From: an uncultured bacterium
Lineage (GTDB): Bacteria > Bacillota_I > Bacilli_A > RF39 > UBA660
NCBI GenBank assembly: GCA_900314225.1
Contig: OMUM01000185.1
Coordinates: forward strand, 1-34,142
DNA: 34,142 nt
Direction of reading: 5' to 3'
Below the pieces are notes generated by a model. It did no database searches, was not told the DNA's origin, and saw only the letters and a list, made by a program, of their open reading frames with translations. This document shows, one piece after another, positions 5,001-29,677 of this stretch. Numbering within the stretch: position 1 is the stretch's first letter; each line of letters starts with the position of its first letter. The position numbers and the translations under genes are program-made.

Positions 5001-5028
5001 TTGACTTTTTTTGCAAGTATGATAAAAT
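5001..5028 (+). promoter_or_regulatory. sigma-A-type promoter P1 (start of the locus)
   Basis: TTGACT (5001-5006), 16-nt spacer, extended -10 TGaTAAAAT (5020-5028). This leaves a leader of about 65 nt before ATG 5100. Confidence 0.65.
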
Positions 5029-5099
5029 TAACTATAAGAGTAGATAATCGTCATAAGATAGTTGTGAATATATTATGAAATTGAGAGGATGATATAATT

Positions 5100-6911
5100 A
5101 TGAGTAAGAAAAATAATAATTATTTAAGAATTTTCAAATTAATTATCGCAATAGTAATTGTCTTTTTATTTATTTGGTTTTTAATAATCTCACCTAAAAT
5201 TAAATTTCATAATAATGAGAAAAAAATGAAAGAAGCAGCTGAAAGATATTTTGAAATAAATAGTAATGAATTGCCTACAGGAAAAAGAGTAAAAACACTT
5301 ACATTAAGTAATTTATATTCAAAAAAATATCTTTCAGGTGACTTTTATGTACCATATAGTAACACTTTATGTGATCAAACAGATAGTTGGGTCAAAGTAA
5401 GAAAAAATAATAATGGTTCTTACGAATATTTAGTTTACTTAGATTGTGGTATTTTACAATCAAATGTTGATCATGAAGGACCAGAAATAAAACTTAATGG
5501 AGAAAAAGAAATAACTATATCTATTGGAGACAAATATACAGACCCTGGAGTAAAAAGCGTAGTTGATAATTCAGATGCTGAATTAAAAATAAGTGATGTG
5601 ATAAAAAAAGGCTCTATAGACACAAATAAAATAGGAACATATAATATTCAATATATTGCCTATGATTCTCTAAAAAATAAAACAACCATGACAAGAACAA
5701 TTAAAGTTGTTAAAAGCCTAAAAAGTGTGGTTAAAAAAGATTTAGGGCAAGCTAAAAATTATGTTGGAAATCCTACAAATAATTATGTTAGACTTTCAAA
5801 TATGATATATCAAATATATGGATTAGATTCAAACAATAATGTAATATTAGTCGCCGCTGAAGATGTTGCTAATGTAAACTTTACTAAATTAAACAAATGG
5901 TTAAATGGATACTATTATAATCATTTAAATGATAAAACAAAGAAAATGATAGTAAAAGCAAAATATTGTAATATGACAATTACAGATACAACATTAGATA
6001 CAACAGAATGTACAAGTTATACAAATAAAGTTAATATATATGTCCCAAGTGTTATAGATATAAATAAAGCCCAAGGCGATGGCAACTTTATGAAAACTAG
6101 TACAATGTCATGGACAGCAAATAATACAGATAATAATAAAGCCTATGTTACAAGATATATTTTCTTTGGAGATTATTTTGGAAAGAATTATTATCCTGAC
6201 AATGTTACTAATAATTATGGCGTTAGACCAATGTTTACAATAAAAGGTAATTCAAATATTGTAGAAGGTGATGGAACACTTTCTAATCCTTATACATTTG
6301 GAGATTCAAAGAAAATTAAAGGAGGAGAAAGTATTGATAAGCTTTCAACTGGAGAATATCTAGTCCTTTCCGATGTTTTATACCGAGTTGTGGATAATGA
6401 AAATGGCTTAGTAAAAGTAATTGGTGATGATTCAATTGTCAGTGATAATGAAGAAATAGAAACATTTTCAACTGCTCCAAATGACAAAGTTCTTTATAAT
6501 CCTAATGATAAAGATAATGTTGCATATTTTATTAACAATGAATCAGACAAGTATATTGATACTAGTAATTTTGCTCTGCATAATATTGAGGTACCAATAT
6601 ATAGTGGAAATATAATATATGGTGAAGAAAAGAAAACAAAAAAATATAAGGTAAAATTATTTGCACCTAATATGTATGAAATGTTTAGTGCTCAAACAAA
6701 TTTATATGGACATTTTTCACATAGCTACTGGTTAATAAATAGTTCAAGTGCAAAAAATGTTGCTGCAGCTATTACTGATATAGGAGTACCTGTTAATGAA
6801 GAATACGTTGCATATTCTAAATTTGGAATACGTGTTTGTGCTTATCTAAAAGATAATATAGTTATTACAAGTGGAAGCGGTACATATGGCGATCCATATT
6901 TGATTGGTTAA
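5100..6911 (+). CDS. N-terminally anchored surface protein: membrane-proximal Cys-pair domain, Ig-like surface domain, two W-x-L...VRP modules
   Basis: GAGAGGATGA ribosome-binding site and signal anchor LIIAIVIVFLFIWFLIISP. The segment GPEIKLNGEKEITISIGDKYTDPGVKSVVDN...GTYNIQYIAYDSLKNKTTMTRTIKVV matches the bacterial Ig-like surface domain I know as DUF5011. Two modules end in VRPMFTI...GDGTLSNPYTFG and IRVCAYL...GSGTYGDPYLIG. It is a paralog of 28412-29647. Confidence 0.7.
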   Translation: MSKKNNNYLRIFKLIIAIVIVFLFIWFLIISPKIKFHNNEKKMKEAAERYFEINSNELPTGKRVKTLTLSNLYSKKYLSGDFYVPYSNTLCDQTDSWVKVRKNNNGSYEYLVYLDCGILQSNVDHEGPEIKLNGEKEITISIGDKYTDPGVKSVVDNSDAELKISDVIKKGSIDTNKIGTYNIQYIAYDSLKNKTTMTRTIKVVKSLKSVVKKDLGQAKNYVGNPTNNYVRLSNMIYQIYGLDSNNNVILVAAEDVANVNFTKLNKWLNGYYYNHLNDKTKKMIVKAKYCNMTITDTTLDTTECTSYTNKVNIYVPSVIDINKAQGDGNFMKTSTMSWTANNTDNNKAYVTRYIFFGDYFGKNYYPDNVTNNYGVRPMFTIKGNSNIVEGDGTLSNPYTFGDSKKIKGGESIDKLSTGEYLVLSDVLYRVVDNENGLVKVIGDDSIVSDNEEIETFSTAPNDKVLYNPNDKDNVAYFINNESDKYIDTSNFALHNIEVPIYSGNIIYGEEKKTKKYKVKLFAPNMYEMFSAQTNLYGHFSHSYWLINSSSAKNVAAAITDIGVPVNEEYVAYSKFGIRVCAYLKDNIVITSGSGTYGDPYLIG

Positions 6912-6935
6912 TTTAATAAGATTGGAGTAATTAAC

Positions 6936-7763
6936 ATGAGAGCAAAAAAAAGAAAAAAAATAAAATTTAGCAATAAAAAGTTAATGCTTTTATTGTTAGT
7001 TATTATAATAATTTTTTTGATTTTCTTATTAATTGAGAAAATAGTTTTATCAAAAAATTATGATACTTCTTATTCATATAAAAATATATCACATATAGAT
7101 GATATAAAAAATTCTAAAGAAAAAAATGATAAAGATGGTTATAAAACTATTGGTTGGATAGATTTATATGATACAGATATCAATATGCCAATATTAAAAA
7201 TAGATGATGACTTTGAAGATAGAATAAGTTTTAATAAATTCGCATGGACAGATGGAGACGAAAAATTTTATAATTTCATAACTATTTATGGACATAATAT
7301 TGCTAACGTAGGTATTCCAAGCATTGATGGTAAATATTTTTATAGATTTGAAGAATTAATGGCTTTTATTTATAAAGATTTTGCAGAAAAACATAGATAT
7401 TTTCAAATTACTATAGATAATAAAGATTATATTTATGAAATATTTTCAGTTAATTTTGTTGATTCGTTTGATGCCTATCAACTACCTTCGGGAGATATAT
7501 CTAAATCAAAAATGCATAAATATTTAAAAGATTTTATTGATGATAGCATTTATGATTATAAAATTAAAGTAAACGAAGATGATGATATTGCTGTTTTAAC
7601 AACCTGCACAAGAATGTTTAGTAAAAAGAATGAAACAAGTAAAGATAGTCTAATTGTTGTTGGCAAACGAGTTGATAAAGATGAAAAAAATTATACTTTA
7701 AAGAAAAGTAGCAAATATGAAAAAGTTGAGAAAGTTTTAAGAGGTGATAGTTATGTGTCATAA
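6936..7763 (+). CDS. class B sortase-like transpeptidase
   Basis: N-terminal signal anchor, then GWIDLYDTDINMPILK. The catalytic triad is in order: His (TIYGHNI), Cys (VLTTCTR, the TLxTC-type motif) and Arg (VVGKRVD). The SrtB-like segment YEIFSVNFVD is present. Confidence 0.75.
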   Translation: MRAKKRKKIKFSNKKLMLLLLVIIIIFLIFLLIEKIVLSKNYDTSYSYKNISHIDDIKNSKEKNDKDGYKTIGWIDLYDTDINMPILKIDDDFEDRISFNKFAWTDGDEKFYNFITIYGHNIANVGIPSIDGKYFYRFEELMAFIYKDFAEKHRYFQITIDNKDYIYEIFSVNFVDSFDAYQLPSGDISKSKMHKYLKDFIDDSIYDYKIKVNEDDDIAVLTTCTRMFSKKNETSKDSLIVVGKRVDKDEKNYTLKKSSKYEKVEKVLRGDSYVS

Positions 7764-10404
7764 AAAATACAAATTAAAAAAGATTTTAATAATATTTATA
7801 ATTGTTTTTATTACAATATTTATTCCTAAAGTATATGCAGAAGACACGACGGACAAATGTTCGGAGGGATCTCTATTAAAAAGGTATAAAATTGAGTATA
7901 AAAATAATAGAATTACAATAACACCAAATGAAAATGATAAGAAGTATAAAAATGTAGTTTTTACAGTTGCAGAATTATTAAAGCACAATATATATGAAGA
8001 AAATGGTAGTACTAAAGAAAACTATACTAACATTGATATAAGTCAGTATAATTTTACTAATGGAACATCATTTGATTTAAGTGGTCTTAATATTGGTAAT
8101 AACTTTAGAATAAAATTAAGTACAACAAATGAACCTGATTGTAAAAGTGATAAGCCAATTGAATTTACTTTTGAATATGGAGAAGAAGGCATTCAAAATC
8201 CAAAGACAGAAACATTTGATTTATCAAACGGCTCTGATATAAAAGAAGTAACAATGAACAATACTTCAAGCGATACTGATGTATTCATAAATATAGCAAA
8301 AAATAATAAATCAAATAGTAAAATTGATTATACAAAAGACACAAATACTTTACAAAAATTTAAATGTGATGTAACAAAATTTTACAAAGAATCAGAACTA
8401 AAGGATGATAACTATTACAAAAGTGAAAATAGAAAGTATTTATATGGATATAAAAATGTAGAATTGGAAGCAACATATAATTATAACTATACATCAGGTA
8501 AAAAAGATAGTGAAACTACTAAATGTAATATTAAATGTGAAGAGGGAGTTGTAGTTGAATATGGTCCTCCAGTTGCAACTAAAGCTGGATTATGTTTTGA
8601 ATATAAAATTAAAGTAACTAGTAAAGTTAAATGCAATATGACAGAAAAGCCAAAAAAACCAAAAACAAATGCTAGTGTTTGTACTCCATCTCCTTATTGT
8701 GTACATCAAAGTTCAGGAGCTGTTTACAAGCAAGCAGGCCCATCAGAAGAATTTGATACATGCGTTAAAAAATGTGATGGAGGAAAGTATACAAAGAAAT
8801 GTACAAATAAATGTTACAAGAGTGTTTATGGGGAATCAAGTACGTCTAAAACATCTAATTTAGCATCAAATAATTATAATACTTTAAGATTAAGAGGAAA
8901 ATTAGATACATATAAAGGAAACTTTGGAAGTTATAACAAATGTGTTTCTTATTCCAAAAATAAGCAGTATGGTGGATGTTATACCTATACAAAAGGTGGC
9001 ATTGAATGGTTAAGTAAGCCTATTGTAAGAGGTAGATATTATATAAATCCAGGTTATGACCCTCACTCACAATTCCCAAGCCATAATTATTTTGTAGATA
9101 ATAGAGGATTCTACCGAGCTGATTATGGATGGAGTGTTTGTGATGATGTATGTTCTTGGGTTGGATGTGGCAGTAAATCATATTTAAATTATGGAGAAGC
9201 TGAAAACGACTACACAAGTAATATAGAAAAATATAATAGTTTAGTTAGTAAATGTGAAGCTGCAGCATCATGCTCAACTAAAACAGCAGAATTTACAATC
9301 AGTGTTGATTATACAAAGAATAAAGAAACAAAAATAACAACAATAAATTTCCCATATAGTACAACTAGCAATAGTAAAACAGATAAATTAGGTACATGTA
9401 AAGATGAGAATAATACATCTTCAACAGCCTGCAATTCAAGTGGAAAAACAGATAATAATAAATCAACAATTTGTAAAACAAGACCAAACGGAAGTGTTAT
9501 TTTACAATATGCTGGTTGCTACAATAATTGTGAAAATAATAATTATTATATGACTGAGTGGAGTTTCCCAGGTACCTGGATGAATGGAAAAACTGGTGAA
9601 ATATCATATGTTGATAAATCAAATTTCAAAGGTTGGAGAACAGAAAAGCAAAAATTCTGTGTTCCACTTGATGCAAAAAATGTAAATACAAAATGGTGGA
9701 GTAAATATTATGCTCATATATTAAGTGATACAAAGCTTCAAGAGTATAAAGACAAATATAATATTGATTTTACATCATTAAGAAATATTGCAGGAGCCGA
9801 AAGCGATGTAGATAGCTGGAATATTAAGGGAAAAGTTACTAAATTTGGATATATTGGTTGGGATATTGATGTTAGTTGCTTCTATTCAATGAATAAACCA
9901 ACTACTACTTGTACTGGTGATAATTGCAATAGTGCTCGTGTTAGAACAGTAGACTTGAAAAATTTGTTCCCAGTTACTGAAAGTGGTTCTAGCAATACAA
10001 GTAGTACTAGTAGACAACCAGGATTCAACTGGACATCTAATGCGTTAATAACTAATGATAGAGTTCACGATACTGGAAGTACAATTAGAAACGGCACTTC
10101 ATCAAGTTCAGGATATTTCTCAAATCCAAGTAGTTATGCTGAAAATGTTCAAAAAATTGGTTATAAAGTATATTCTGATAAATATCTTGATTATGAATTT
10201 ACTATAACACCTTCTGAATTAAAGACATTAAAAAGGAATGTATCTGATAATAATTATACTAACTATAATGGAAACATAAAACAAGGCAAAGATGGTGTCT
10301 CAAGATATAAAAGTAACATAATTCATGGTAGTACAATAAAAGATAAAAAAGTTACTGAAAACTTTGATTGTAATAATATGGAAAACTATCAGAATGGTTG
10401 CTAA
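7753..10404 (+). CDS. secreted cysteine-rich large protein (about 31 Cys in the mature chain), function unknown
   Basis: ATG 7753 is preferred over the track's GTG 7744 because AGAGGTGA lies at 7739-7746. The start overlaps the end of the sortase gene by 11 nt. There is a Sec signal peptide KKYKLKKILIIFIIVFITIFIPKVYA/ED. There is no C-terminal sorting signal; the protein ends ...NYQNGC. Confidence 0.7.
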   Translation: MCHKKYKLKKILIIFIIVFITIFIPKVYAEDTTDKCSEGSLLKRYKIEYKNNRITITPNENDKKYKNVVFTVAELLKHNIYEENGSTKENYTNIDISQYNFTNGTSFDLSGLNIGNNFRIKLSTTNEPDCKSDKPIEFTFEYGEEGIQNPKTETFDLSNGSDIKEVTMNNTSSDTDVFINIAKNNKSNSKIDYTKDTNTLQKFKCDVTKFYKESELKDDNYYKSENRKYLYGYKNVELEATYNYNYTSGKKDSETTKCNIKCEEGVVVEYGPPVATKAGLCFEYKIKVTSKVKCNMTEKPKKPKTNASVCTPSPYCVHQSSGAVYKQAGPSEEFDTCVKKCDGGKYTKKCTNKCYKSVYGESSTSKTSNLASNNYNTLRLRGKLDTYKGNFGSYNKCVSYSKNKQYGGCYTYTKGGIEWLSKPIVRGRYYINPGYDPHSQFPSHNYFVDNRGFYRADYGWSVCDDVCSWVGCGSKSYLNYGEAENDYTSNIEKYNSLVSKCEAAASCSTKTAEFTISVDYTKNKETKITTINFPYSTTSNSKTDKLGTCKDENNTSSTACNSSGKTDNNKSTICKTRPNGSVILQYAGCYNNCENNNYYMTEWSFPGTWMNGKTGEISYVDKSNFKGWRTEKQKFCVPLDAKNVNTKWWSKYYAHILSDTKLQEYKDKYNIDFTSLRNIAGAESDVDSWNIKGKVTKFGYIGWDIDVSCFYSMNKPTTTCTGDNCNSARVRTVDLKNLFPVTESGSSNTSSTSRQPGFNWTSNALITNDRVHDTGSTIRNGTSSSSGYFSNPSSYAENVQKIGYKVYSDKYLDYEFTITPSELKTLKRNVSDNNYTNYNGNIKQGKDGVSRYKSNIIHGSTIKDKKVTENFDCNNMENYQNGC

Positions 10405-10422
10405 TGGAGGTGAAGAAAGTAT

Positions 10423-10926
10423 ATGAATAAAGGTATGCTTACTGTTGGAATAATTTTATTAAGTTTAATTGCATTACTACTAATAAATGTATTAACAAAT
10501 TATTCTACTGGCAGTGAATTAGATTATTATTTAATTAAAGAAACAACAACAGCTGCAATGGTTGATGCAGAAGATTATGATTTTATTAGAAACTGTGGAG
10601 TTCCTAGAATCGATAAAGAAAAGTTCATTGAGAGCTTTCTTTATCGTCTAGCTTCAAATGTTGACACAACAAGAGGATATAAAATTGGTTTTTATGATAT
10701 CAATGAAGTTCCTCCTAAAGTTAGTGTAAAAGTTGATTCGTTAACAACATTAAGTTTCAAAGCAAAAGATGCTTCTGGAAAAACAAATAATGAAGCTGCT
10801 GATATTACAACTAGTTATGATGCAATACTTGAAACTCCATATAAGATGGATGTAACAGTTGACACAGGATTAAAAGATAAAAAAAGTGATATGTGCAAAT
10901 TAAGTAAATACAAAATTAATGAATAA
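10423..10926 (+). CDS. small membrane-anchored protein with a prepilin-like N-terminus (possible minor pilin)
   Basis: GGAGGTGA ribosome-binding site. The N-terminus MNKG/MLTVGIILLSLIALLLINVL is a short polar leader ending in Gly followed by a long hydrophobic helix. The gene lies directly upstream of the Tad assembly genes. Confidence 0.45.
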   Translation: MNKGMLTVGIILLSLIALLLINVLTNYSTGSELDYYLIKETTTAAMVDAEDYDFIRNCGVPRIDKEKFIESFLYRLASNVDTTRGYKIGFYDINEVPPKVSVKVDSLTTLSFKAKDASGKTNNEAADITTSYDAILETPYKMDVTVDTGLKDKKSDMCKLSKYKINE

Positions 10927-10937
10927 GGAGGATAAGA

Positions 10938-11750
10938 ATGGGAAATTTATCTACAAGTTTAAAAAAATTTTTACAAAATAAAAATACAGTTACTGTAGTT
11001 GGTGTGATTCTAGCAATTGTTGTCTTGTACGTTGCATATACAATACGTATAAGAAGTTCTATCAATCCAGTATCTGTTCCTTATGCAACTGAAAAAATTT
11101 ATTCTGGAACTCAAATAACAAAAAATCAAGTTGGTACTATCGAAGTACCTCCTTCTATGTTAGAGGGAGAAGTAATAACAGATGCTAGTCAAATAATTGA
11201 TAAGTATGCAGCTGCTGATACAGTAATTCCAGAAGGTAGTTTATTTTATAAAAGTGCAGTTGTTGAGAAAGAACAATTACCAGATAATATCATTCTAGAG
11301 TATCCAAAGGGTTATGTTTTATATAACTTAACAGTTAATTCAAATTCTACATATGGTAATTCAATTTATCCAGGCAATTATATTGATATTTATTTTAAGG
11401 CTGTTAATAAAATTGATGAATCTGATCAAACACAATTAACAGCAGCTGCTGATCAGGTAATTTTAGGAAAATTTATATCAAATATTAAGGTACTTGCTGT
11501 AAGAGATTCTACTGGTAAACCAGTATTCCAAAACTTAGATGAAAACAGAACTCCTGCTATGGTAATATTTGCTGTACCAGAAGAGTACTATATTCTTCTA
11601 AAGAAGTCTGAATTTATGCAAACATATGATACAACATTGATTCCAGTTCCAACAAACGAAAGTTTAAAAGATGAACCTGCCGATTTAGAGATGAGTAGTG
11701 ATACATTAAAGAACTGGATTAATAATCATACATATTATGATGTAAATTAA
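10938..11750 (+). CDS. cpaB: CpaB/RcpC-like Flp pilus assembly protein (SAF domain)
   Basis: AGGAGGA ribosome-binding site, N-terminal TM, then the SAF-like segment VPYATEKIYSGTQITKNQVGTIEVPPSMLEGEVITDASQIIDKYAAADTVIPEGSLF. It lies immediately upstream of the CpaF-like ATPase. Confidence 0.6.
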   Translation: MGNLSTSLKKFLQNKNTVTVVGVILAIVVLYVAYTIRIRSSINPVSVPYATEKIYSGTQITKNQVGTIEVPPSMLEGEVITDASQIIDKYAAADTVIPEGSLFYKSAVVEKEQLPDNIILEYPKGYVLYNLTVNSNSTYGNSIYPGNYIDIYFKAVNKIDESDQTQLTAAADQVILGKFISNIKVLAVRDSTGKPVFQNLDENRTPAMVIFAVPEEYYILLKKSEFMQTYDTTLIPVPTNESLKDEPADLEMSSDTLKNWINNHTYYDVN

Positions 11751-11779
11751 TTATTAAAATAAAAAGGGATGTGAGTTAA

Positions 11780-13231
11780 ATGAATGAAAATATATTTGAT
11801 AAATTAGATTTTGGACCATTTCGTTCATTACTTGATAATGATGACATAACAGATATTTCCTATGATAATGGTGGTCAAATTTGGGTTCGTTCTTTAACTC
11901 AAGGTTCCATGAGAGTTGAAGTTGAAGGAGCAACTCCAGAATTTGTTGAAAAACTTGCTTTTCAATGTTCCAATGTCATGGGTACAACTTTTAATAATGC
12001 AAAGCCATTTCTTGATGCAGAATCTTCAGAATTACGTCTGAATTTCGTTCATCAATCTATAGCAACAAATGGAATTGCCTTAGTTATTCGTAAAACTCCC
12101 GCTAAAATAAGATTAAATAAAGATAAGTTAATTAAAGAAGACTATTTTACTCCAGCTATACATGATTTTTTAATTAAATGTGTTGAAGGTCATTGTAATA
12201 TAATGGTTGCTGGAGAAACTGGTTCAGGTAAAACTGAATTTGTTAAATATTTAGCAGCTCATACCAAAACAGAAGAAAAAATTATAACAATTGAGGATAC
12301 ATTGGAATTGCATCTTGATAAAATATTTCCACAAAGAGATATTGTTGCAATGAAAACAAATAATGTAGCAAGTTATTCTGACGTATTAGTTACATGTATG
12401 CGTCAAAATCCAAAATGGATATTGCTTTCAGAAGTACGTTCAGCTGAAGCTGTTTCTGCTGTTCGTAACTCTATTTCATCAGGACATAATATTTTATCAA
12501 CTATTCATGCTGATAAAGCATCTGCTATCCCATATCGTTTATATTCATTAATGGAAACAGATTTGGATGTTAATCAGTTTTTGAATACAATTTACCGTTA
12601 TATTCAAATTGGAGTTCATATTAAAGCATTTTATAGTAAACAATATGGCAATTTTCATCGTGAAGTTGATGAAGTTACTGAATTTTATGTTGATGATGAA
12701 AATAAGCCAATTTCTCATACAATCTATCAAAAGATAATGGGAAAAGTTATGATGTGTAAACCAAGTGCTCATTTGATTGAATATCTGGACAATCAAAATA
12801 TTAATGTCTATGAAATAATTAAAGATTTACCAGATGAAATGCCAGTTGTTGAATTAAAAGATGATGATACAATAAACTTTGTTAATGCTTCAAGTAATAA
12901 TGCAAGTTTGAAAGAAAACGTAGAAGTTACAAAACAATCAACACAAAATATTGTTCCTGAACAGCAAAAAAATTTATCAATTGGTAATACAGGTAATATT
13001 ACAGTGTCTACACAACAACAAGATATTCAACATCCAGTGCAAATTCAAAAAAATGCTCAGGTACCTCAGCAATCGGTTACACAAAATGTGTTATCGCAGA
13101 AAAATATACCACAATCTAGTCAGCCAGTAATACCACAGCTTAATCCACAACAAATTGTTATGCCAATACAAAATGCAAATCAGCAAGTAGCACCATATAG
13201 ACCTCCAATTATTACTAAATTAGGAGAATAG
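11780..13231 (+). CDS. tadA: CpaF/TadA-type secretion ATPase (VirB11/PilT superfamily) with a Q/P-rich C-terminal extension
   Basis: Walker A VAGETGSGKTEFV, Asp box ITIEDTLEL, Walker B-like ILLSEVRSAEA and His box LSTIHA. The last 110 aa or so are low-complexity Gln/Pro-rich. Confidence 0.85.
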   Translation: MNENIFDKLDFGPFRSLLDNDDITDISYDNGGQIWVRSLTQGSMRVEVEGATPEFVEKLAFQCSNVMGTTFNNAKPFLDAESSELRLNFVHQSIATNGIALVIRKTPAKIRLNKDKLIKEDYFTPAIHDFLIKCVEGHCNIMVAGETGSGKTEFVKYLAAHTKTEEKIITIEDTLELHLDKIFPQRDIVAMKTNNVASYSDVLVTCMRQNPKWILLSEVRSAEAVSAVRNSISSGHNILSTIHADKASAIPYRLYSLMETDLDVNQFLNTIYRYIQIGVHIKAFYSKQYGNFHREVDEVTEFYVDDENKPISHTIYQKIMGKVMMCKPSAHLIEYLDNQNINVYEIIKDLPDEMPVVELKDDDTINFVNASSNNASLKENVEVTKQSTQNIVPEQQKNLSIGNTGNITVSTQQQDIQHPVQIQKNAQVPQQSVTQNVLSQKNIPQSSQPVIPQLNPQQIVMPIQNANQQVAPYRPPIITKLGE

Positions 13232-13246
13232 AATGGAGTTGATTAT

Positions 13247-14952: not shown

Positions 14953-14969
14953 AAATTTATTATAAAATA

Positions 14970-14998
14970 TTGATAATATTTAATAAATTTGATAAAAT
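14970..14998 (+). promoter_or_regulatory. sigma-A-type promoter P2 in front of the Flp-like pilin gene
   Basis: TTGATA (14970-14975), 17-nt spacer, extended -10 TGaTAAAAT (14990-14998). The -10 block is the same as in P1. Confidence 0.6.
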
Positions 14999-15032
14999 AA
15001 AAATGATTATCATGAAAGGATAGGTGATATTA

Positions 15033-15182: not shown

Positions 15183-15194
15183 TAGGAGTTATTT

Positions 15195-20185: not shown

Positions 20186-20199
20186 TATAAAGTTGGAGT

Positions 20200-22851: not shown

Positions 22852-22871
22852 AATAAATATTTAAGTGTTAG

Positions 22872-25211
22872 GTGGTGGTATCAGTGGCAAAGCAAAATAA
22901 TCAAACAAGTGAAGAAAATGAAACAGCACGAGCTAATAAAAATAATGCTAATAATATAAGAAATGCTGCTGATATTGCTATAGCTTCAAAGAATCCATAT
23001 GCTATGGCTGCTGGTGGAGCTGTTAAAGCAGCTGATAAATTAACCGGTGGAAAAGCATCTGAAGCCTTAGGTAAAGCACTAACGCATGCTAACAGTAGCA
23101 TGCCTGGAGGAAATCTACGACAAAAAGCTTTAAATAATATAAATGAAAGTGGTTTGGGAGACAAAGTAGGAAAAGCTGTCTCAATGAAAAATCAAATGGC
23201 TGGTAAAAATGGTACTAGTAAAGCCAATGAAGATTCTAAGCCAAATAATACTGAAAAAAGCAATAAAAATAACAATCAAAATAATATTCCTACTAATAAT
23301 GCAAATACTTCTGGAGGAGAACAAAACAGTTCTCCTTCTTCTAGTACACCAAGAGCTCCTTTTAGAGATAGCTTTTTTGACAAGCATAAAAATGATAATG
23401 CGAAAGATGATTCTGCTAAATCTAAAAGTTCTGGAATTTTTTCTGGAATGGGAACAATAACAAAAGTAATAATCATTTCCTACTTTCTTGGGATACTTGG
23501 TATTATTCTTTTTATAATATTGATACTAAGCATTGTAAATTCTAATATATCTAATTATGATGACGCTTTTGGTATTAGCCAAGAAATGGGAGAAGAAACA
23601 GGCAACTATATCCATGGTGGAAGTACAGAACAAAATGATTTTTATAAAAGAATTAATAATGTTAAATTAAGCTATCAAGCAGAAGGAAAATCAATAGATG
23701 GTTTGAAAATAGTTGCTGTTTATACTATTTTGAAAAAAAATGGAGCAAATGTTAGCTATGACAAATTTGGCGAATCAGAAATCAAAGAAATTGCCGACGC
23801 CATGTTTGATGAAAGTAATACATATAATGAAGAAACATTTAAAAACAATTTAATTAACAACATATTTCCTAAATATTTGCCTGAGTCTACTAAAAGTGAA
23901 AGAAAAAATATGGCTGATGATGTTTTCGAGTATATAGATAATTACTATAGTCTGATTGGAAAAGAAAAAAATAGTGATTCTGTCTGTTCATCTACTGGAA
24001 GTTGTAGTTATAATATAAAAGGTTATTATATTAATGGAAAAGGTAATGTTAAAGAAGATATTCAAATAAGCAATTTATATGTTAGATTGATGCAATGTGG
24101 AACAGGAAATGGACATAATTATGGTGGTACTTTTGGACAACCATTAGAAGGTGAAGAATTAGTTCCATTTGAAAAATATGTTTTAGGAGTTGCCTATCAA
24201 GAAATTGGACCAAGTTCACCAAAAGAAGCAATTAAAGCACAAATGATTGCAGCAAGAAGCTTTATATTGGCTCGTCATGCTGATATGGGTGGATGGAGAA
24301 CCTTAAAAGAAGAAAGTGATGGCAAATGGGTTTTACAAGTTGCAGCTTGTACACAAGATCAAGTATATTGTGATCCAGATAAAGGTTGCTCTGGAACTGA
24401 TGGACAATGGGGACAAGTATATAGTGGATTAGGACACGGTTCATTTCAAAGAGCTGCCATGGCCAAAGATTCACCGCTTAGAACCTATGCTAATGAAACC
24501 GCCGGAGAAGTGCTAGTAAATAATCAAGGCTATATAGTATACACAGATTATGGATCAACAATTCAAAATAAATTTATAAGTTTAGCTAAATCAGGTCTTG
24601 ATTATAAGCAAATATTATTACAGGTCTATGGTGGACAAAAGCATAATGCTTCTAGTATCCAAAAAAACAACTGTGGTGGTTCATCTTGTGTCAATGCTGC
24701 CAGTGGAGATTATGCTAATTGGAAGCAATATCAAGGTTCTTGGATTAATGTTCAAGTTGGTAATAGCGGTAGAACAATTAAAGATATTGGTTGTTTAGTT
24801 ACATCTGTATCAATGCAAATAGCAAGAAGTGGAGTTCAAACAAATATTTCAAACTTTAATCCTGGTACTTTTGTAGAGTATCTAAATTCTCATGGAGGAT
24901 TTGCCTCAGGTGGAAACTTTGTATGGTCAGCCGCAACATCCGCTGCTCCTTCATTTAAATTTGTTGGTAAAGCAAGTCTTTCAGGATTATCAAAAGATCA
25001 AAAATTAAATAAAATAAAAGAAGTAGTTAATCAAAGTGAAGTATATGCGGTAGCAGAAGTTAAAGGTAATACTGGACAACATTGGGTAGCAATTGATAGA
25101 GTAGAAGGCGATAAAGTTTATATGATGGACCCAGGAAGTACAGCAACTGATATGTGGGCACAATATCCTTGGTCAAATACTTCAGAAATAGCTTACTATA
25201 GAGTAGGATAG
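22872..25211 (+). CDS. membrane-anchored bifunctional cell-wall hydrolase (SpoIID/LytB-like domain plus papain-fold C39-like or CHAP-like cysteine peptidase domain); VirB1 functional analog
   Basis: The start is GTG 22872 or GTG 22884, after AGGTGGTGG. It has a low-complexity N-terminal region of about 195 aa and a TM (VIIISYFLGILGIILFIILILSIV). The SpoIID signature is YVLGVAYQEIGPSSPKEAIKAQMIAARSFILAR...CTQDQVYC...TAGEVLV. The C-terminal domain has Cys (DIGCLVTSVSMQIA), His (GQHWVAID) and Asp (YMMDPGS). Confidence 0.75.
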   Translation: MVVSVAKQNNQTSEENETARANKNNANNIRNAADIAIASKNPYAMAAGGAVKAADKLTGGKASEALGKALTHANSSMPGGNLRQKALNNINESGLGDKVGKAVSMKNQMAGKNGTSKANEDSKPNNTEKSNKNNNQNNIPTNNANTSGGEQNSSPSSSTPRAPFRDSFFDKHKNDNAKDDSAKSKSSGIFSGMGTITKVIIISYFLGILGIILFIILILSIVNSNISNYDDAFGISQEMGEETGNYIHGGSTEQNDFYKRINNVKLSYQAEGKSIDGLKIVAVYTILKKNGANVSYDKFGESEIKEIADAMFDESNTYNEETFKNNLINNIFPKYLPESTKSERKNMADDVFEYIDNYYSLIGKEKNSDSVCSSTGSCSYNIKGYYINGKGNVKEDIQISNLYVRLMQCGTGNGHNYGGTFGQPLEGEELVPFEKYVLGVAYQEIGPSSPKEAIKAQMIAARSFILARHADMGGWRTLKEESDGKWVLQVAACTQDQVYCDPDKGCSGTDGQWGQVYSGLGHGSFQRAAMAKDSPLRTYANETAGEVLVNNQGYIVYTDYGSTIQNKFISLAKSGLDYKQILLQVYGGQKHNASSIQKNNCGGSSCVNAASGDYANWKQYQGSWINVQVGNSGRTIKDIGCLVTSVSMQIARSGVQTNISNFNPGTFVEYLNSHGGFASGGNFVWSAATSAAPSFKFVGKASLSGLSKDQKLNKIKEVVNQSEVYAVAEVKGNTGQHWVAIDRVEGDKVYMMDPGSTATDMWAQYPWSNTSEIAYYRVG

Positions 25212-25219
25212 GTGATAAA

Positions 25220-25996
25220 ATGGATAATAAAAAAACTTATATATTTTTAATGACAATAGTTATAGCCTTTGGAATAATAATGTATTTTGTCTTTGCTAAA
25301 CCAAATATTAAAAGTGGGAAAGATTCAGCTACTTTTATTGTAGGAGATAATACTATTTGGAAATATAATAATAAAAAATGGCTAAATATTACATTATCAT
25401 CTTCTATAAAAAAACTAAATTGGCAAAAATATAAAGTTTTTTCTGATAATAAATTTCTTGGTACCTATCAACTAATGTATAATGATAAATGGTATGCTTT
25501 TACTGATAAAAATAAAGCAGTAAATTTAAATGGAAAAATTTTTGCTTATAAATCAAATTACAATATTAATTTATTGCAATTTGAAAGTAAAGAAATAACT
25601 CCTGATGATTACGTTTATCAAGTATTATCTAATAATAATATTAGTTTATCAAGTAAGCTTACATCATTATCAAAAACTGATATTGATTTTGATAATGATG
25701 GAAAGCTAGAATCATTTTATATAGTTAGTAATGCCTTTGCTGATAATTTTAGTCCTGAATATACATTTGCTTTTGTATTTATGGTAAAAGATAAACAGAT
25801 ATATGAAATATATAAAGACATAAGTAAAAATGAATTTTATAATGGTTGTAAACCATATTTTACATCTTTTTTAGATATTAATAATGATAATATATATGAG
25901 TTTATTTTAAGTTGTGGAAAATATAGTATAGAAGAAGAAGTCAATATGTTATATCAACTTGATAATGATAACTTTAAAATATTAATTTCTAATTAA
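25220..25996 (+). CDS. N-terminally anchored extracytoplasmic protein, function unknown (positional candidate for a VirB8/TcpC-like scaffold)
   Basis: AGGTGA ribosome-binding site and TM IFLMTIVIAFGIIMYFVF. There are two Asp/Asn-rich loops, DFDNDGKLE and DINNDNIYE. I recognise no diagnostic motif. Confidence 0.5.
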   Translation: MDNKKTYIFLMTIVIAFGIIMYFVFAKPNIKSGKDSATFIVGDNTIWKYNNKKWLNITLSSSIKKLNWQKYKVFSDNKFLGTYQLMYNDKWYAFTDKNKAVNLNGKIFAYKSNYNINLLQFESKEITPDDYVYQVLSNNNISLSSKLTSLSKTDIDFDNDGKLESFYIVSNAFADNFSPEYTFAFVFMVKDKQIYEIYKDISKNEFYNGCKPYFTSFLDINNDNIYEFILSCGKYSIEEEVNMLYQLDNDNFKILISN

Positions 25997-26002
25997 TAAA
26001 TA

Positions 26003-26031
26003 ATGACATTAGTTAAAAGTTACGTTATAAT
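26003..26031 (+). promoter_or_regulatory. sigma-A-type promoter P5 in front of the coupling-protein gene
   Basis: aTGACA (26003-26008), 17-nt spacer, TATAAT (26026-26031). Confidence 0.6.
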
Positions 26032-26057
26032 AAAAACTAGAAAGGGAGTAGTGATAT

Positions 26058-28397
26058 ATGAAATTAAAATTGAGGATAGATTCAGATGATTTATTAATTT
26101 TTATTGTATTCGCAATCTTTTTACTTTATATAGTTGCTATTGGTGTAGTTAATGTTCATTCGTTTGCTACACAAGGAGTTTTATCAGGATTAAATCCTTT
26201 TCCAGCATTTGCTCCCGAAACTATTTTTTCAACATTTGTAGTTTATTTTGTTTGCATTTTAATTCTATTATTAAGTGTAAGCTCTTATATTTTTGATAGA
26301 GATAAAGGTTTTGGAATAACTACTGATAAAAAGGATAAAGGATATTCTAGATGGGCCAAAGATAAGGAAATGAAAGAAGAATTGGAATGTGTAAAAATTA
26401 CCCAAAAAAATTCAAAAGCTGCTGGGATCCCTCTTATTTTGAATGATGAAGAAATGTGGGTTGATAATGGTGAATACCATTCTCTAGTAATTGGTGCTAC
26501 TGGATCAGGTAAAACACAAACCGTAGTCTTACCAATGATTTATAGTTTAGCTAAAGCACGCGAATCTATGATTATTACCGATCCAAAAGGTGAACTTTAT
26601 GAAAAGACAAGTAATATGCTTAGATCTCGTGGTTATCAAATATTACTTTTAAATTTTCGTGATCCACAAAGTGGTAATGCCTGGAATCCAATGACATTAC
26701 CATATCAAATGTATAAAAATGGAAATCAAGATAAGGCTATAGAGTTACTAGATGATTTGGCTATGAATATACTATATGATCCTTCAAATAAAAACGCTGA
26801 TCCATTCTGGGAAAAAACTTCAGCAGATTATTTTGCCGGTGTTTCACTTGGTTTATTTGAAGATGCTAAACCAGATGAAATAAATATTAATAGTGTTAAT
26901 CTTGTAACAACTGTCGGTGAAGAAAAGTTTGGTGGTTCTACTTATATAAAAGAATATTTTAATGCTAAGGATCCAGCCAGTCCAGCAGCAGTTGATGCAT
27001 CAAGTACAATCATGGCTCCAAACGAAACAAAGGGTAGTATTTTATCAGTATTTAAGCAAAAGGTTAAGTTATTTGCATCACGTGAAAACTTATCAGAAAT
27101 GCTTTCACATAGTGATATTAATTTGGAGTCTATTGGTGAGAGACCAACTGCTGTGTTTATTGTTATCCAAGATGAAAAAAAGACATATCATGCCTTAGTT
27201 ACAATCTTATTAAAGCAAATATATGAAACTTTAATCGCAACTGCACAAAGACATGGTGGACAACTACCAGTAAGAACAAATTTCTTGCTTGATGAATTTG
27301 CTAATATGCCACCATTAAAAGATGTCACAACAATGATTACCGCTGCTCGTTCTAGAAAAATTAGATTTACAATGATAATTCAAAACTTTGCTCAATTAGA
27401 TGATGTATATGGTAAAGAAGAAGCAGAAACTATCAGAGGTAACTGTGGTAACATTATTTACTTAATTACAACAGAACTAAAAGCTCTAGAAGAAATATCA
27501 AAAATGTGTGGTGAAGTAAAGTCTAAAAAGGATGACAAAACAGCTTCAACTCCACTTGTAACAGTTTCAGACTTACAAAGAATGAAACAATTTGAAGTAA
27601 TAATTTTACGTATGCGTAAACAACCATTTAAAACTAAATTTACTCCATTTTTCAAGTTAAATTGGGGAAGAAAATATCCAGTTGCTAAATATCCATTAAG
27701 AAAAAAACAAGAAGTACATACTTTTGATATAAAGACATTTGTTAAAGAACAAAAGAAGAAAAAATTACTTGAAATGATGAATGCAGCTGACGAAGAGGAT
27801 AAAATAAATCAATCTTTACCTGGAAATAGGGAAAATCAGATGCATAATGCACTCCCTCCAGAGTTACAAGCAATTCGTAATAATAGAAATAATAATAATA
27901 ATAGTGTTCCTGAATTTTTTTCAAATAAAAATAATTCTAGTAATAAAGATATTCCTGATTTTGAAACATTTAAAAGGCAAATGGAACAAAGCAATCCTTT
28001 TGAACCAAAAATAAATAATAATAATTTTGCAACAACACCAGTCAGTCAGACAGCACTTACTGAAAACGATAATGATGACGATATAGATTTTGATGTAGAT
28101 GAATTAGTTAAGAAGATAGATGCAAAAATTGCCGAACTTGAAGCTGAAGAGAAGAAAGAAGCAGAAGAAAAAAAGCAACAAGAACAAGCTACTTCAACTA
28201 CAGCCCCAACTACTGTTGCAACAACACCTATTAATAGTATTAATTCTATTTATAATACTTCAGAAAACCAACAGGTATCTAATAAAAATATTCCTGATGT
28301 TTCTAGTAAACAGGCAGAATCTAGTCCTCAAACATCAGATCTAAACTTGGATGATGATGACGATGATGATTTCTTTGATGATTTTTTTGATAGTTAG
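26058..28397 (+). CDS. virD4: VirD4/TraG-family type IV coupling protein with a long low-complexity acidic C-terminal tail
   Basis: AAGGGAG ribosome-binding site and two N-terminal TM helices. Walker A is VIGATGSGKTQTVVLP and Walker B is NFLLDEFANMPPL. The segment RSRKIRFTMIIQNFAQL is present. The last 210 aa or so are N/E/D-rich and end DDDDDDDFFDDFFDS. Confidence 0.88.
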   Translation: MKLKLRIDSDDLLIFIVFAIFLLYIVAIGVVNVHSFATQGVLSGLNPFPAFAPETIFSTFVVYFVCILILLLSVSSYIFDRDKGFGITTDKKDKGYSRWAKDKEMKEELECVKITQKNSKAAGIPLILNDEEMWVDNGEYHSLVIGATGSGKTQTVVLPMIYSLAKARESMIITDPKGELYEKTSNMLRSRGYQILLLNFRDPQSGNAWNPMTLPYQMYKNGNQDKAIELLDDLAMNILYDPSNKNADPFWEKTSADYFAGVSLGLFEDAKPDEININSVNLVTTVGEEKFGGSTYIKEYFNAKDPASPAAVDASSTIMAPNETKGSILSVFKQKVKLFASRENLSEMLSHSDINLESIGERPTAVFIVIQDEKKTYHALVTILLKQIYETLIATAQRHGGQLPVRTNFLLDEFANMPPLKDVTTMITAARSRKIRFTMIIQNFAQLDDVYGKEEAETIRGNCGNIIYLITTELKALEEISKMCGEVKSKKDDKTASTPLVTVSDLQRMKQFEVIILRMRKQPFKTKFTPFFKLNWGRKYPVAKYPLRKKQEVHTFDIKTFVKEQKKKKLLEMMNAADEEDKINQSLPGNRENQMHNALPPELQAIRNNRNNNNNSVPEFFSNKNNSSNKDIPDFETFKRQMEQSNPFEPKINNNNFATTPVSQTALTENDNDDDIDFDVDELVKKIDAKIAELEAEEKKEAEEKKQQEQATSTTAPTTVATTPINSINSIYNTSENQQVSNKNIPDVSSKQAESSPQTSDLNLDDDDDDDFFDDFFDS

Positions 28398-28411
28398 AAA
28401 GGAGGAATAAT

Positions 28412-29647
28412 ATGAATACAAATTTTAATATCGTAAAAAAGCCTAAAAAAGATGATGACATTGAACTTGAAGAAGATGAAGAGGAAGAAGAAATAGAAGA
28501 AGATTCTGACTCAAATACAAAAGCAAAATCTAATTCAATGGATGATTTAAAAAAAAGAATGTTCTTATTAATGGGAATTATTATTGGAGGAACTATTCTT
28601 CTATTAATTATCCTTTACATAGCTTCTTTAGCAACACCAAAAACTTACAGCTATGAGACCATTGAAAACATTATGACTACAGCTGCTAAATCATATTTTA
28701 AAGATAATTCTACATATTTACCAAAAGAAGATGGTGATGTCGTAGAAGTTGATGTTACCAATTTAGTTGCTGGTGGATATATGAAGGATTTAAGTGAATA
28801 TACTAAAGAGGGAGTATCATGTAGTGGTACTGTTCAAGTAGGAAAATCTGGTTCTGAATATTCATATACACCTACATTAAATTGTGGAGAAGCATATTCA
28901 ACTACAAAATTATATGAAAAAATAATTAATGATGATAATATTGTTACATCTGGATATGGCTTATATTCTAGAAATGGTTCATATGTTTATCGAGGAGAAG
29001 AAGTTGATAATTATGTTCAATTAGATAATTCATTATGGAGAATTGTTAAAGTAACTTCAAATAAAAATATTGTCCTTATCAGCGAAGGTCTACAAAGTGG
29101 ACAACCATGGGATGATAGATATAATGAAACTAGTAGTTATGCTGCAGGTATTAATACATATAGTGCAAGTAGAATTAAAGAATATTTAGATAAAATTTAT
29201 AAGAATCCATCAGAAAAAGATAATGAAAAAATTTTATCAAAAGGAGATAAAGCCAATTTAGTATCATATAATATTTGTACTGGTAAAAAGCCTGAAACAT
29301 CTAGTGCCTTTGATAATGTTGAAGAGTGTTCAGATCACTTAAATAATCAAAAATTAGGACTACTTACAGTCTCTGATTACGTTTATGCTAGTATTGATCC
29401 AAATTGTAAAACAATTACCAGCAAGACTTGTCAAAACTATAATTACTTAGATATAAATAAAGCTTGGTGGTTAGTAACAGCAAATTCTGCTAATACTGTA
29501 TCCGTTTACAAAGTTGATAATAGTGGTAATGTTAAATCAAGTGAAGCTAATACTTACGCTATAGTTAGACCAGTTATTTACTTAGATAGTAAAGTTTTAT
29601 ATAAGAGTGGTAATGGTACAGAACAAAAGCCATACAAAATTAGATAG
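28412..29647 (+). CDS. N-terminally anchored surface protein, paralog of 5100-6911 (acidic cytoplasmic N-tail, Cys-pair domain, W-W-L...VRP module)
   Basis: AAGGAGG ribosome-binding site and acidic N-terminus DDDIELEEDEEEEEIEEDSD. The TM is MFLLMGIIIGGTILLLIILYIA. It shares with 5100-6911 the pattern AA--YF--NS--LP...C...V-V-K...L-CG, and its end AWWLVTANS...AIVRPVIYL...GNGTEQKPYKIR is also related. Confidence 0.7.
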   Translation: MNTNFNIVKKPKKDDDIELEEDEEEEEIEEDSDSNTKAKSNSMDDLKKRMFLLMGIIIGGTILLLIILYIASLATPKTYSYETIENIMTTAAKSYFKDNSTYLPKEDGDVVEVDVTNLVAGGYMKDLSEYTKEGVSCSGTVQVGKSGSEYSYTPTLNCGEAYSTTKLYEKIINDDNIVTSGYGLYSRNGSYVYRGEEVDNYVQLDNSLWRIVKVTSNKNIVLISEGLQSGQPWDDRYNETSSYAAGINTYSASRIKEYLDKIYKNPSEKDNEKILSKGDKANLVSYNICTGKKPETSSAFDNVEECSDHLNNQKLGLLTVSDYVYASIDPNCKTITSKTCQNYNYLDINKAWWLVTANSANTVSVYKVDNSGNVKSSEANTYAIVRPVIYLDSKVLYKSGNGTEQKPYKIR

Positions 29648-29677
29648 GAATCTATAATTAAATAGATTCTTTTTTTT
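29648..29677 (+). terminator. rho-independent terminator closing the locus
   Basis: gaatctat (29648-29655) pairs with atagattc (29662-29669) around a 6-nt loop, followed by T8 (29670-29677). Confidence 0.75.

Follow-up and report, generated by a model that had tools for sequence, protein, structure and literature searches.

A Tad-like filament module beside a monoderm type IV secretion system at a conserved locus of uncultured gut and rumen bacteria

Layout of the locus and its transcription signals

The window analysed here is a 34,142-nucleotide stretch of DNA (about 27% G+C) comprising positions 1 to 34,142 of contig OMUM01000185.1 (assembly GCA_900314225.1), from an uncultured bacterium of the RF39 lineage, and the subject of this study is a locus within it in which genes resembling those of a Tad pilus stand directly beside genes that encode a type IV secretion system (T4SS) of monoderm type. 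A preliminary description of the sequence had listed 22 consecutive, co-directional plus-strand open reading frames (ORFs) between 5100 and 29647, and this was confirmed together with three junctions that it had singled out: an overlap of 11 nt between the gene at 6936-7763 and the next, taking the start at 7753 that is the choice of metagenome gene callers, a TAATG at 14147-14151 and an ATGA at 21055-21058. It is suggested here that the locus is probably a version, fixed in the chromosome and inherited vertically, of the mating apparatus in two modules that is carried by Bacillus conjugative plasmids (pCT72 and the pLS20 family). Module 1 (3314-17147) would comprise surface and adhesin proteins, a sortase and a Tad-like filament machine, while module 2 (17235-29647), which has a conserved promoter to itself, would comprise a monoderm T4SS and a second surface protein. 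The features are collected in Table 1, and genes are referred to below by their first position.

The gene at 3314-4888, which brings the number of ORFs to 23 if it is counted, belongs to the locus as its conserved first gene: an orthologue with 35-62% identity is present in almost all related loci, and in other species the gap between this homologue and the next gene has a median of 10 nt. Housekeeping genes flank the locus within the window, greA and dxs upstream and a rhodanese gene, rmuC and trpS downstream. The presence of dxs (1356-3263) between greA and the first locus gene is confined to this species (L001-L006); other genomes have greA upstream and no dxs inside the fetched flank.

Several sigma-A-like promoters had been proposed for the locus, of which one stands. 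Promoter-like hexamers are not in excess in the window (105 against 108 expected from shuffled sequence), and the candidates at 5001, 14970, 17586 and 26003 were dismissed, their frequency being no higher than chance and conservation in relatives being absent. That at 17152-17181, which lies directly after the stop codon of 16134, is a perfect match to the consensus and is conserved; in 118/120 related loci an exact TTGACA is found no more than 40 nt from the 16134 stop, as against 1% of random windows, and of all the junctions in the locus only 17147-17235 shows comparable TTGACA conservation (also seen in L007-L166). In many of the loci inspected a strong Shine-Dalgarno sequence, GAAGGAGAGG, follows the conserved promoter. 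The strong terminator proposed at 29648-29677 held in so far as a plausible hairpin and run of T8 are found there; a consensus terminator scan missed it because the hairpin has fewer than 3 GC pairs and is too GC-poor for such a scan. Further downstream, at 31084-31107 between rmuC and a small membrane ORF, a perfect 9-bp palindromic hairpin with T-runs on both strands is likely to be a bidirectional terminator.

Table 1. Features of the locus, by position in the window, with the evidence for each
Position	Strand	Feature	Evidence and remarks
3314-4888	+	Polytopic membrane protein, ectodomain weakly DUF4352-like	About 5 N-terminal hydrophobic segments
5100-6911	+	N-terminally anchored surface protein, bacterial Ig-like and DUF6273	PF16403 3e-18, PF19789 6e-7; one N-terminal transmembrane segment
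6936-7763	+	Sortase-family transpeptidase, weakly class B-like	PF04203 2.9e-6, barely above cut-off
7753-10404	+	Large secreted Cys-rich protein	32 Cys (3.6%); N-terminal hydrophobic segment
10423-10926	+	DUF5411 protein	PF17424 3e-41; short basic leader and hydrophobic N-terminus MNKG/MLTVGII, conserved
10938-11750	+	CpaB/RcpC-like protein (SAF + RcpC), N-terminally anchored	TIGR03177 9.2e-10, PF16976 1.8e-5, SAF 1.9e-3
11780-13231	+	Type IV-filament ATPase, CpaF/FlaI group	PF00437 (T2SSE) 2.4e-27
13247-14149	+	Platform-like polytopic membrane protein, TadB-like	Distant homology, topology, position
14149-14952	+	Second platform-like membrane protein, TadC-like	Topology same as 13247
15033-15182	+	Flp-sized pilin-like protein, 49 aa	MKAATG-ELNLTVITLLAIAAVIAFFW; start also given as MKAATGELNLTV, MKAATGELNLTVITLLAIAAV
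15195-15617, 15629-16111	+	Two paralogous minor-pilin-like proteins	BLASTP between them 3.6e-16
16134-17147	+	Cytoplasmic two-domain TadZ-like protein	Receiver-like N-domain and ParA/SIMIBI-like NTPase, degenerate Walker A (..GAGATT)
17152-17181	+	Sigma-A-type promoter, TTGACA-18-TATAAT	12/12 consensus match, conserved; precedes the T4SS half
17235-17546, 17621-17989	+	Two paralogous VirB2-like small membrane proteins	hhalign between families 99.6%
18011-20185	+	VirB6/TrbL-like polytopic channel protein	PF19597 TrbL_4 5.4e-8, over cut-off; five hydrophobic segments
20200-20529	+	VirB3/PrgI-like small membrane protein	Family profile against pCT72 PrgI-family protein 1.5e-4; position
20507-21058 (N-domain), 21055-22851 (ATPase)	+	VirB4 ATPase, two translationally coupled ORFs	NF045975 9.4e-14, 6.4e-106
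22872-25211	+	Membrane-anchored wall hydrolase (VirB1 role), SpoIID-type lytic domain	PF08486 3.2e-11, TIGR02669 4.3e-11
25220-25996	+	N-terminally anchored protein with DxDxDG-like motifs	Conserved in locus; no family match
26058-28397	+	VirD4-type coupling protein	PF02534 8.8e-57 (over cut-off), PF12696 3.2e-25, PF10412 2.3e-24
28412-29647	+	Second N-terminally anchored DUF6273 surface protein	PF19789 1.1e-4
29648-29677	+	Likely locus terminator, AT-rich 8-bp hairpin then T8	GAATCTAT-aattaa-ATAGATTC-TTTTTTTT

Components of the two modules

Both of the module assignments made in the preliminary description, Tad-like and T4SS, hold overall, although individual components are reached by profile search to different degrees. 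In the Tad-like half the ATPase matches its family directly and the CpaB-like protein does so with all of its CpaB, RcpC and SAF scores under the curated cut-offs, whereas the TadB, TadC, Flp, TadE and TadZ assignments are indirect only. In the T4SS half VirB4, VirD4, TrbL_4 and SpoIID matches are direct and the VirB2-like match is weak, while the VirB3-like protein is likewise reached only indirectly.

Tad-like modules of this type have the DUF5411 gene in first place as their signature, and the domain has been tied to operons with CpaF and PilC/GspF in Clostridia (PMC9523054). From its domain matches the 10938 product supplies the CpaB/RcpC component that a Tad system is expected to have, and its family profile also finds an RcpC-like protein (3e-24) on L167, one of two contigs that carry distantly related operons. 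Among sequences of known structure the ATPase is nearest to FlaI (1.7e-20) and CpaF (2.8e-18), followed by VirB11 (1.2e-13) and PilB (1.9e-9), which places it, as judged by sequence, in the CpaF/FlaI group though not as a curated TadA equivalog. Its core is 83-93% identical across species. The Q/P-rich low-complexity tail of this protein (12880-13231) is very variable in length, and the matched ORFs are of 174-752 aa, some of them truncated.

The two platform-like proteins are well conserved within the lineage (13247, 62-95%; 14149, 57-92% identity across species), and 13247 has one transmembrane segment, then two, a soluble domain of about 130 aa and one further segment. When 1.8 billion representative proteins were scanned with HMMER, only 235 relatives of 13247 were recovered, about 20 of them full length with 20-33% identity (phmmer E 1e-39 to 1e-6), and PF00482 T2SSF is matched by 2/20 of these distant full-length relatives, the best at 2.3e-5; a profile search begun from the distant relatives gave 9 proteins only, being limited by its word index. 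Two of the relatives could be placed on contigs (L167 and L168), where they lie in an operon of a T2SSE ATPase, one or more membrane proteins, an ORF of 48-50 aa and an ORF of about 105 aa, headed by an RcpC-like gene in L167 only. L168 carries no T4SS within 10 kb; in L167, whose contig ends downstream, none lies upstream. The 14149 family aligns with the second membrane protein of L167 (hhalign, 98%), and L168 encodes at 10001-11476 a single protein of 491 aa (P0277) with a first half like 13247 and a second half like 14149. A two-repeat arrangement is known from PilC/GspF, and the fusion of the two halves in P0277 corresponds to it. The AlphaFold2 (AF2) model of 13247 is all-helical (pLDDT 82.6). 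Profile searches of PDB sequences with the 13247, 14149 and 16134 families gave chance matches only.

The N-terminal 30 residues of the Flp-sized protein are near-invariant across species, and its profile finds the small ORFs in the same operon position of L167 (48 aa, 4.7e-5) and L168 (50 aa, 1.6e-3), which carry EEYG or DEYG, reminiscent of Flp but with no upstream Gly. The two minor-pilin-like proteins begin with a leader of the form M(R/K)(D/E)x(F/L)GG, which is followed by a hydrophobic helix and by a globular part that contains Cys; their N-termini are conserved, and neither matches TadE or DUF4320. A short charged leader ending in Gly and followed by a hydrophobic helix is common to both of them and the DUF5411 protein. 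For 16134 there was no sequence match in Pfam, NCBIfam or PDB, and it is from its AF2 model (pLDDT about 90 for the N-domain and 65 for the whole, the alignment being shallow) that a fold of the TadZ architecture is predicted. Foldseek aligned this model with ParA 3cwq (probability 1.00), the RcsB receiver (0.99) and the FlhF/SRP GTPases; the solved TadZ structure is not among the 50 matches listed.

In the second half the assignments of VirB6, VirB4, VirD4 and the hydrolase are secure, and the module is one that we take to belong to the MPF-FATA/FA group. The 17621 product matches PF18895 T4SS_pilin weakly (7e-4), and this family is matched by 12/28 of the scanned orthologues of 17235 and 17621, the best at 1.1e-6. 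The VirB6-like protein has a long, variable C-terminal extension and is 26-52% identical across species. There is no direct family match for 20200, which precedes VirB4 just as its counterpart does in each of the two Bacillus plasmids discussed below. The ATPase piece of VirB4 also matches conju_CD1110 (3.2e-52) and TIGR00929 (2.8e-23), and the division of VirB4 into pieces of about 183 and 596 aa, with an overlap of 4 nt, is kept in all relatives, whereas the NF045975 model (mycoplasma-ICE VirB4) spans both pieces as one protein. The hydrolase has one transmembrane segment at 193-229 and a C-terminal region with Cys/His motifs, which may be a peptidase. Between hydrolase and VirD4 there is always an orthologue of 25220 (27-58% identity), and this is the only unassigned anchored protein suitably placed for VirB8; profile scans with it matched nothing. 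The tail of VirD4 (27700-28397) is N-rich and then strongly acidic (...DDDDDDDFFDDFFDS).

The membership of the 6936 product in the sortase family stands, its sequence including an LTTC motif, while the class B assignment given to it earlier is weakened by a TIGR03064 (srtB) match of 8.7e-15 that is far under the model cut-off. The three large surface proteins that were inspected for a C-terminal sorting signal (7753, 5100 and 28412) show none, and no sortase substrate was recognised among them. The 7753 product, without a match in Pfam or NCBIfam, has orthologues of 840-1385 aa with 24-35 Cys that are 24-42% identical, and is a candidate for a fast-evolving adhesin. The 5100 and 28412 proteins and their inspected orthologues share a C-terminal motif, (I/V)RP(V/T)..L...(S/G)G.GT...P(Y/F).(I/L/V), and in L156, L163, L164 and L166 the homologue of 28412 lies between the two VirB2-like genes.

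A number of observations count against the interpretation offered here. For the ATPase, NCBIfam ranks VirB11 (TIGR02788, 1.5e-31) marginally over the TadA-type model, every model being below cut-off. Neither platform-like protein has a direct match to PF00482 T2SSF in a Pfam scan, the Foldseek comparison of the 13247 model with PDB retrieved no GspF/PilC-like structure for this all-helical membrane protein, and hhalign gave no signal between the 13247 and 14149 families, for which the within-lineage alignments are shallow (Neff about 1.4-1.7). The pilin-like protein has no canonical Flp G/xxxxEY motif, reading TGELNL with no EY, and Pfam pilin families were matched by 0/14 of its scanned orthologues. 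The window contains no TadV/CpaA prepilin peptidase (sought as a polytopic, aspartic-peptidase-like ORF), and no VirB8-like protein of PrgL/TcpC type was recognised among the ORFs of the locus. Finally, three related contigs (L163, L164 and L166) carry a 16134 homologue and the T4SS half without an adjacent pilus half, so that, with the internal promoter, the halves must be regarded as separately expressible and maintainable.

Several of these points would be accommodated if module 1 made no filament at all, its ATPase being a third T4SS ATPase of VirB11 type and the neighbouring products accessory subunits of the T4SS. VirB11 is indeed the top NCBIfam match, though far below its cut-off, and both gene 37 of pLS20 and CDS 22 of pAW63 have been published as VirB11; the want of a prepilin peptidase, of a canonical Flp motif and of direct T2SSF or TadE matches in the window points the same way. 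We nevertheless consider this improbable. In comparison with solved structures FlaI and CpaF outscore any VirB11, and the ATPase is accompanied, in canonical Tad order, by a CpaB/RcpC homologue, two polytopic proteins of platform size and a hydrophobic protein of 49 aa. Two of the distant relatives of 13247 do match T2SSF, and the whole module exists on its own with no T4SS nearby in L168 and, for the upstream side only, in L167. We therefore retain for module 1 the description of a Tad-like machine.

Conservation across the lineage and pairing of the modules in Bacillus plasmids

The exact ATPase protein is found on many metagenome contigs from gut and rumen in which the gene order is the same, and in a scan with one genome per species a relative of it occurred in at least 582 genomes, the 80 best of which were examined. 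All of these 80 are uncultured metagenome-assembled genomes (MAGs), labelled variously as Bacilli, Tenericutes, Mollicutes, Erysipelotrichaceae, 'Mycoplasma sp. CAG:877' and Candidatus Faecimonas (NCBI: Bacilli incertae sedis), and we take this group of gut and rumen MAGs to represent an RF39-type order. By tblastn of all window proteins the full order from 3314 to VirB4 was recovered in practically every locus of sufficient length, usually with greA upstream, and on metagenome contigs anchored on VirB4 the downstream order of hydrolase, 25220, VirD4, 28412, rhodanese gene and rmuC is equally conserved. Adjacency was counted only in loci with sufficient flank: VirB4 lies downstream of the ATPase in 60/62 species-representative genomes, the pilus half lies upstream of VirB4 in 31/34 VirB4-anchored contigs, and VirD4 is present in 42/42 related contigs that reach far enough. 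It had been allowed in the preliminary description that the adjacency might be accidental to this contig, and the synteny across relatives shows that it is not.

Two loci, L066 and L083, that appeared to have separated modules were dismissed as examples of this, the former on account of an insertion of extra genes and the latter of a transposase-like ORF followed by low-quality sequence. In L066 four paralogous ORFs in tandem, each of about 200 aa (15735-18223), with N-termini ending in ...VGYAALSS(T)L, follow the VirB2-like gene, and these inserted paralogues and further ORFs push VirB4 past the fetched flank. The transposase-like ORF of L083 (13736-14506) comes after the second platform-like gene, and beyond it there are only short odd ORFs; this disruption may be an insertion sequence or a misassembly.

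Sequence identity across species is unevenly distributed in the locus, VirB4 being 79-96% and the exposed proteins 24-60% identical. The conserved order, the shared flanks and this pattern of a conserved core and variable surface together argue that the locus belongs to the host, is passed on vertically under purifying selection and is no mobile element. The opposite case, that of an integrative and conjugative element (ICE) or its decaying remnant, still able to transfer itself, draws on two facts: within the plasmid collection, the closest relatives of VirB4, VirD4 and the ATPase that carry annotation are on conjugative plasmids, and the best family model for VirB4 is of the mycoplasma-ICE type. 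It seems to us very unlikely indeed. Profile scans of the ORFs in the 34-kb window revealed none resembling a relaxase, integrase or replication protein, nor was any boundary of tRNA or repeat type noticed in it; moreover, position and housekeeping flanks are the same in dozens of species, and all genes are intact, with identities of core and surface proteins that are typical of a functional host locus.

A comparison by tblastn with 72,556 plasmids was informative about the pairing. The best matches to the ATPase are on Bacillus plasmids of pLS20 type and those to VirB4 on B. thuringiensis plasmids, and we take the latter and pCT72, itself a B. thuringiensis plasmid, to be of the pAW63/pXO2/pBT9727 type. 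The pCT72 region comprises in its first part relaxase, VirD4, TrbL, PrgI, a 227-aa ORF with VirB4, hydrolase and then two surface proteins, and in its second part a 134-aa ORF, a SAF protein, a ParA-like AAA ATPase, an ATPase of the T2SS/T4P/T4SS family and two membrane proteins, ending in small ORFs, DUF4320 included. Direct homology to pCT72 ORFs extends to eight proteins of the window. The matches include CpaB with the SAF-domain protein (5e-31, family profile), the ATPase (2e-33), VirB3 (1.5e-4), VirB4 (1.3e-82) and VirD4 (3.9e-45), and the 227-aa ORF matches the N-terminal piece of the window VirB4 (1.3e-15; split at L171 16748-19327); the membrane proteins align by hhalign with the 13247 (99.6%) and 14149 (91.4%) families. 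As in the window, both modules are in one co-directional region and large surface proteins stand between the sets. The plasmid differs in having a MobP3 relaxase and recombinases, whereas the window locus is chromosomal and the window contains neither, and its modules are in reversed order, with the T4SS first. The TadZ-like gene also differs in place, between CpaB and ATPase in pCT72 and after the minor pilins in the window, and the two TadZ-like proteins have no sequence similarity detectable by hhalign.

In the plasmid compared from the pLS20 family of Bacillus subtilis plasmids (genes 28-74) the first part of the transfer region holds a thioester adhesin, a 126-aa ORF, the ATPase, membrane proteins of 267 and 245 aa, a 120-aa ORF and two 47-aa ORFs, and further on come VirD4, a VirB6-like protein, DUF5592, a 192-aa ORF with VirB4, a bifunctional hydrolase and a MobP2 relaxase; the pilus-like genes thus lie between adhesin and VirD4 in a single co-directional run. 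The order of adhesin, DUF5411-like gene 36, ATPase gene 37, membrane proteins 38/39, gene 40 and genes 41/42 mirrors 5100-16111 of the window, and among the genes that follow is one for a VirB3-like protein. The ATPase (2.5e-47), VirB4 (1e-35) and VirD4 (8e-59) match directly, gene 38 aligns with the 13247 family (hhalign, 97.8%), and DUF5411 is matched at about 1e-5 by both gene 36 and the 134-aa ORF of pCT72. Gene 40, whose product is anchored at its N-terminus, matches DUF4320. Genes 41/42 (L170 21137-21450) are two identical tandem hydrophobic ORFs of 47 aa in the position of the pilin-like gene of the window. Similarity does not extend over the whole region: by hhalign the minor pilins, pilin, VirB4 N-piece and VirB3-like protein of the window have none to their positional counterparts, and genes 39-42 and the 192-aa ORF (together with VirB4 at L170 30158-32645) have none detectable to window proteins. 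The pLS20 family further differs from the window in being plasmid-borne, in its MobP2 relaxase and quorum-sensing control, and in having no annotated CpaB or TadZ-like gene and no reported VirB2-like genes.

It had been thought that the architecture was not that of any described system, which is not so, as it is present in sequenced and experimentally studied plasmids with the ATPase annotated as VirB11 (PMC8557374, PMC1196294). On the pLS20 family it has been reported that gene 37 is a 'putative VirB11', that genes 36 and 38-45 are of unknown function and that the operon is without pilus homologues (PMC8557374), while for pAW63 only VirB11, VirB4 and VirD4 were named among the Vir-type components (PMC1196294), as they were in a 2022 review (PMC9673590). 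The narrower suggestion that a Tad-like set has gone unrecognised as part of a monoderm T4SS is upheld by our literature searches, in which no paper describing it was found; searches for RF39 together with T4SS, Tad or pili likewise gave nothing relevant. This suggests that the paired architecture is already present in known plasmids, yet is unrecognised there as far as these searches reach.

Pairing need not imply partnership, and the locus could also be read as two independent machines side by side, an adhesive pilus for attachment in gut or rumen and a separate T4SS, their adjacency a historical accident preserved by little rearrangement. The dedicated conserved promoter before the T4SS half would fit with this, as would the T4SS halves without a neighbouring pilus half on L163, L164 and L166, and the occurrence of the pilus module alone in other organisms (L167/L168; PMC9523054). 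Even so we regard it as unlikely, since two plasmids whose gene orders differ both pair the same modules within their transfer regions, since the modules are adjacent in more than 90% of lineage members, and since the TadZ-like gene remains beside the T4SS genes when the pilus half is missing there. Plasmids lose genes that serve neither transfer nor maintenance, yet these plasmids have kept the pairing. The genes found upstream of the 16134 homologue on the three contigs (for instance in L164 1-4600) are unrelated ones, diacylglycerol-kinase-like and for a thioredoxin-like lipoprotein.

The conserved promoter at the junction and the lone T4SS halves do tell against the single, tightly packed composite unit that had been envisaged in the preliminary description. 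We read the locus as two transcription units kept together by evolution, that is, as cooperating modules and no indivisible operon. Functional coupling of the two is argued for by the recurrence of the pairing, in other gene order, in pCT72 and the pLS20-family plasmid. In the apparatus that we propose, a chromosomal counterpart of the plasmid one, and by analogy both with its plasmid relatives and with R64 and PAPI-1 (PMC12857230), the filament and adhesins would bring about contact with a neighbouring cell and might also shorten it, the hydrolase would open the wall, and a channel powered by VirB4 and VirD4 would carry a macromolecular substrate between the cells; we infer the assembly of a filament, the cooperation of the modules and the nature of the substrate. 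With no relaxase or integrase in the window, a fixed site and the pattern of conservation described, a domesticated function that serves the host is favoured over the transfer of a mobile element. Such a function could be an exchange of DNA or of protein between cells, possibly in connection with a dependent lifestyle.

It may be, though we put this forward as a conjecture that we rather doubt, that a genuine pilus for mating or contact is built by the Tad-like module and that the RF39-like locus is a domesticated, relaxase-independent core machine for obligate exchange with partner cells. To our knowledge the textbook view is that monoderm conjugation proceeds without pili. If the conjecture were true, that view would be overturned, a whole class of Gram-positive T4SSs including those of pLS20 and pAW63/pXO2 would work with a type IV-filament pilus, and the RF39-like exchange machine would have its parallel in the Patescibacteria, whose T4SS and type IV pili are essential. 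Apart from this conjecture, the lineage is a large, abundant and uncultured one that appears to keep a costly apparatus of about 26 kb at a fixed site under strong purifying selection, and the substrate could explain the lifestyle of these bacteria and whether they depend on partner cells. By the comparison made here the segment of 'VirB11 plus unknown genes' in pLS20 and the pAW63/pXO2-type plasmids is a Tad-like pilus module, and a role for it in mating would be testable in Bacillus subtilis. It is acknowledged that how mating pairs form when Gram-positive bacteria conjugate is an open question (PMC11730352).

Relation to other filament and secretion systems

Of systems described elsewhere, the DUF5411-CpaF-PilC/GspF system predicted in gut Clostridia (Miller et al. 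2022, PMC9523054), with L167 and L168, has the same module as the window: a DUF5411-like protein, RcpC/CpaB, ATPase, two or fused platform-like proteins, a pilin of 48-50 aa and a minor pilin of about 105 aa. The L167 and L168 pilins with their EEYG or DEYG are nearer to Flp than that of the window with TGELNL. Canonical Tad systems (Caulobacter, Aggregatibacter) resemble the window in the gene order CpaB, a TadZ-type protein, CpaF, TadB, TadC, a tiny pilin and TadE/F-like minor pilins, of which the TadZ, TadB and TadC counterparts in the window are putative. The window is unlike them in lacking a secretin, which a monoderm would not be expected to have, in showing neither TadV/CpaA in the locus nor G/xxxxEY, and in that its Tad-like components are all under the thresholds of the curated families. 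By these comparisons of sequence and gene content the module looks like a 'Tad-like' filament machine of the CpaF/FlaI branch, corresponding to the Clostridia system, and is not to be filed as a canonical Tad.

It had also been stated that Tad pili and T4SSs are distinct machines that are normally encoded apart, and known partnerships of T4SSs with type IV pili in Gram-negative transfer systems such as R64 and PAPI-1, and the presence of both in the Patescibacteria, tell against a premise that the two work apart (PMC12857230, PMC12102498). Patescibacteria such as Southlakia epibionticum have a chromosomal, mostly relaxase-less T4SS with VirB2-like (PF18895) pilins, and both this T4SS and type IV pili are essential for their epibiotic growth (PMC12857230, PMC12102498). 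Like the bacterium of the window they are monoderms with reduced genomes, in which the T4SS is lineage-wide and derived from the monoderm conjugation type; unlike it they belong to another phylum, and they have six pilin paralogues as against the two in the window. The locus shares the features of that type, which is the closest analogue so far described, being chromosomal, lineage-wide, without a relaxase nearby and with PF18895 genes, and the analogy is functional only. We know of no report in which the type IV pilus genes of Patescibacteria are physically joined to those of the T4SS.

A type IV pilus encoded together with a T4SS aids mating contact in R64 (the IncI thin pilus), especially in liquid, and in PAPI-1 (PMC12857230). 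These pili differ from the filament proposed for the window in being of type IVb, in belonging to diderms and having secretins, and in being carried by mobile elements that bear a relaxase. Set beside all of these systems, what is known already is the paired architecture itself, and what is new is its chromosomal, lineage-wide and apparently relaxase-less version, of the pCT72/pLS20 class.

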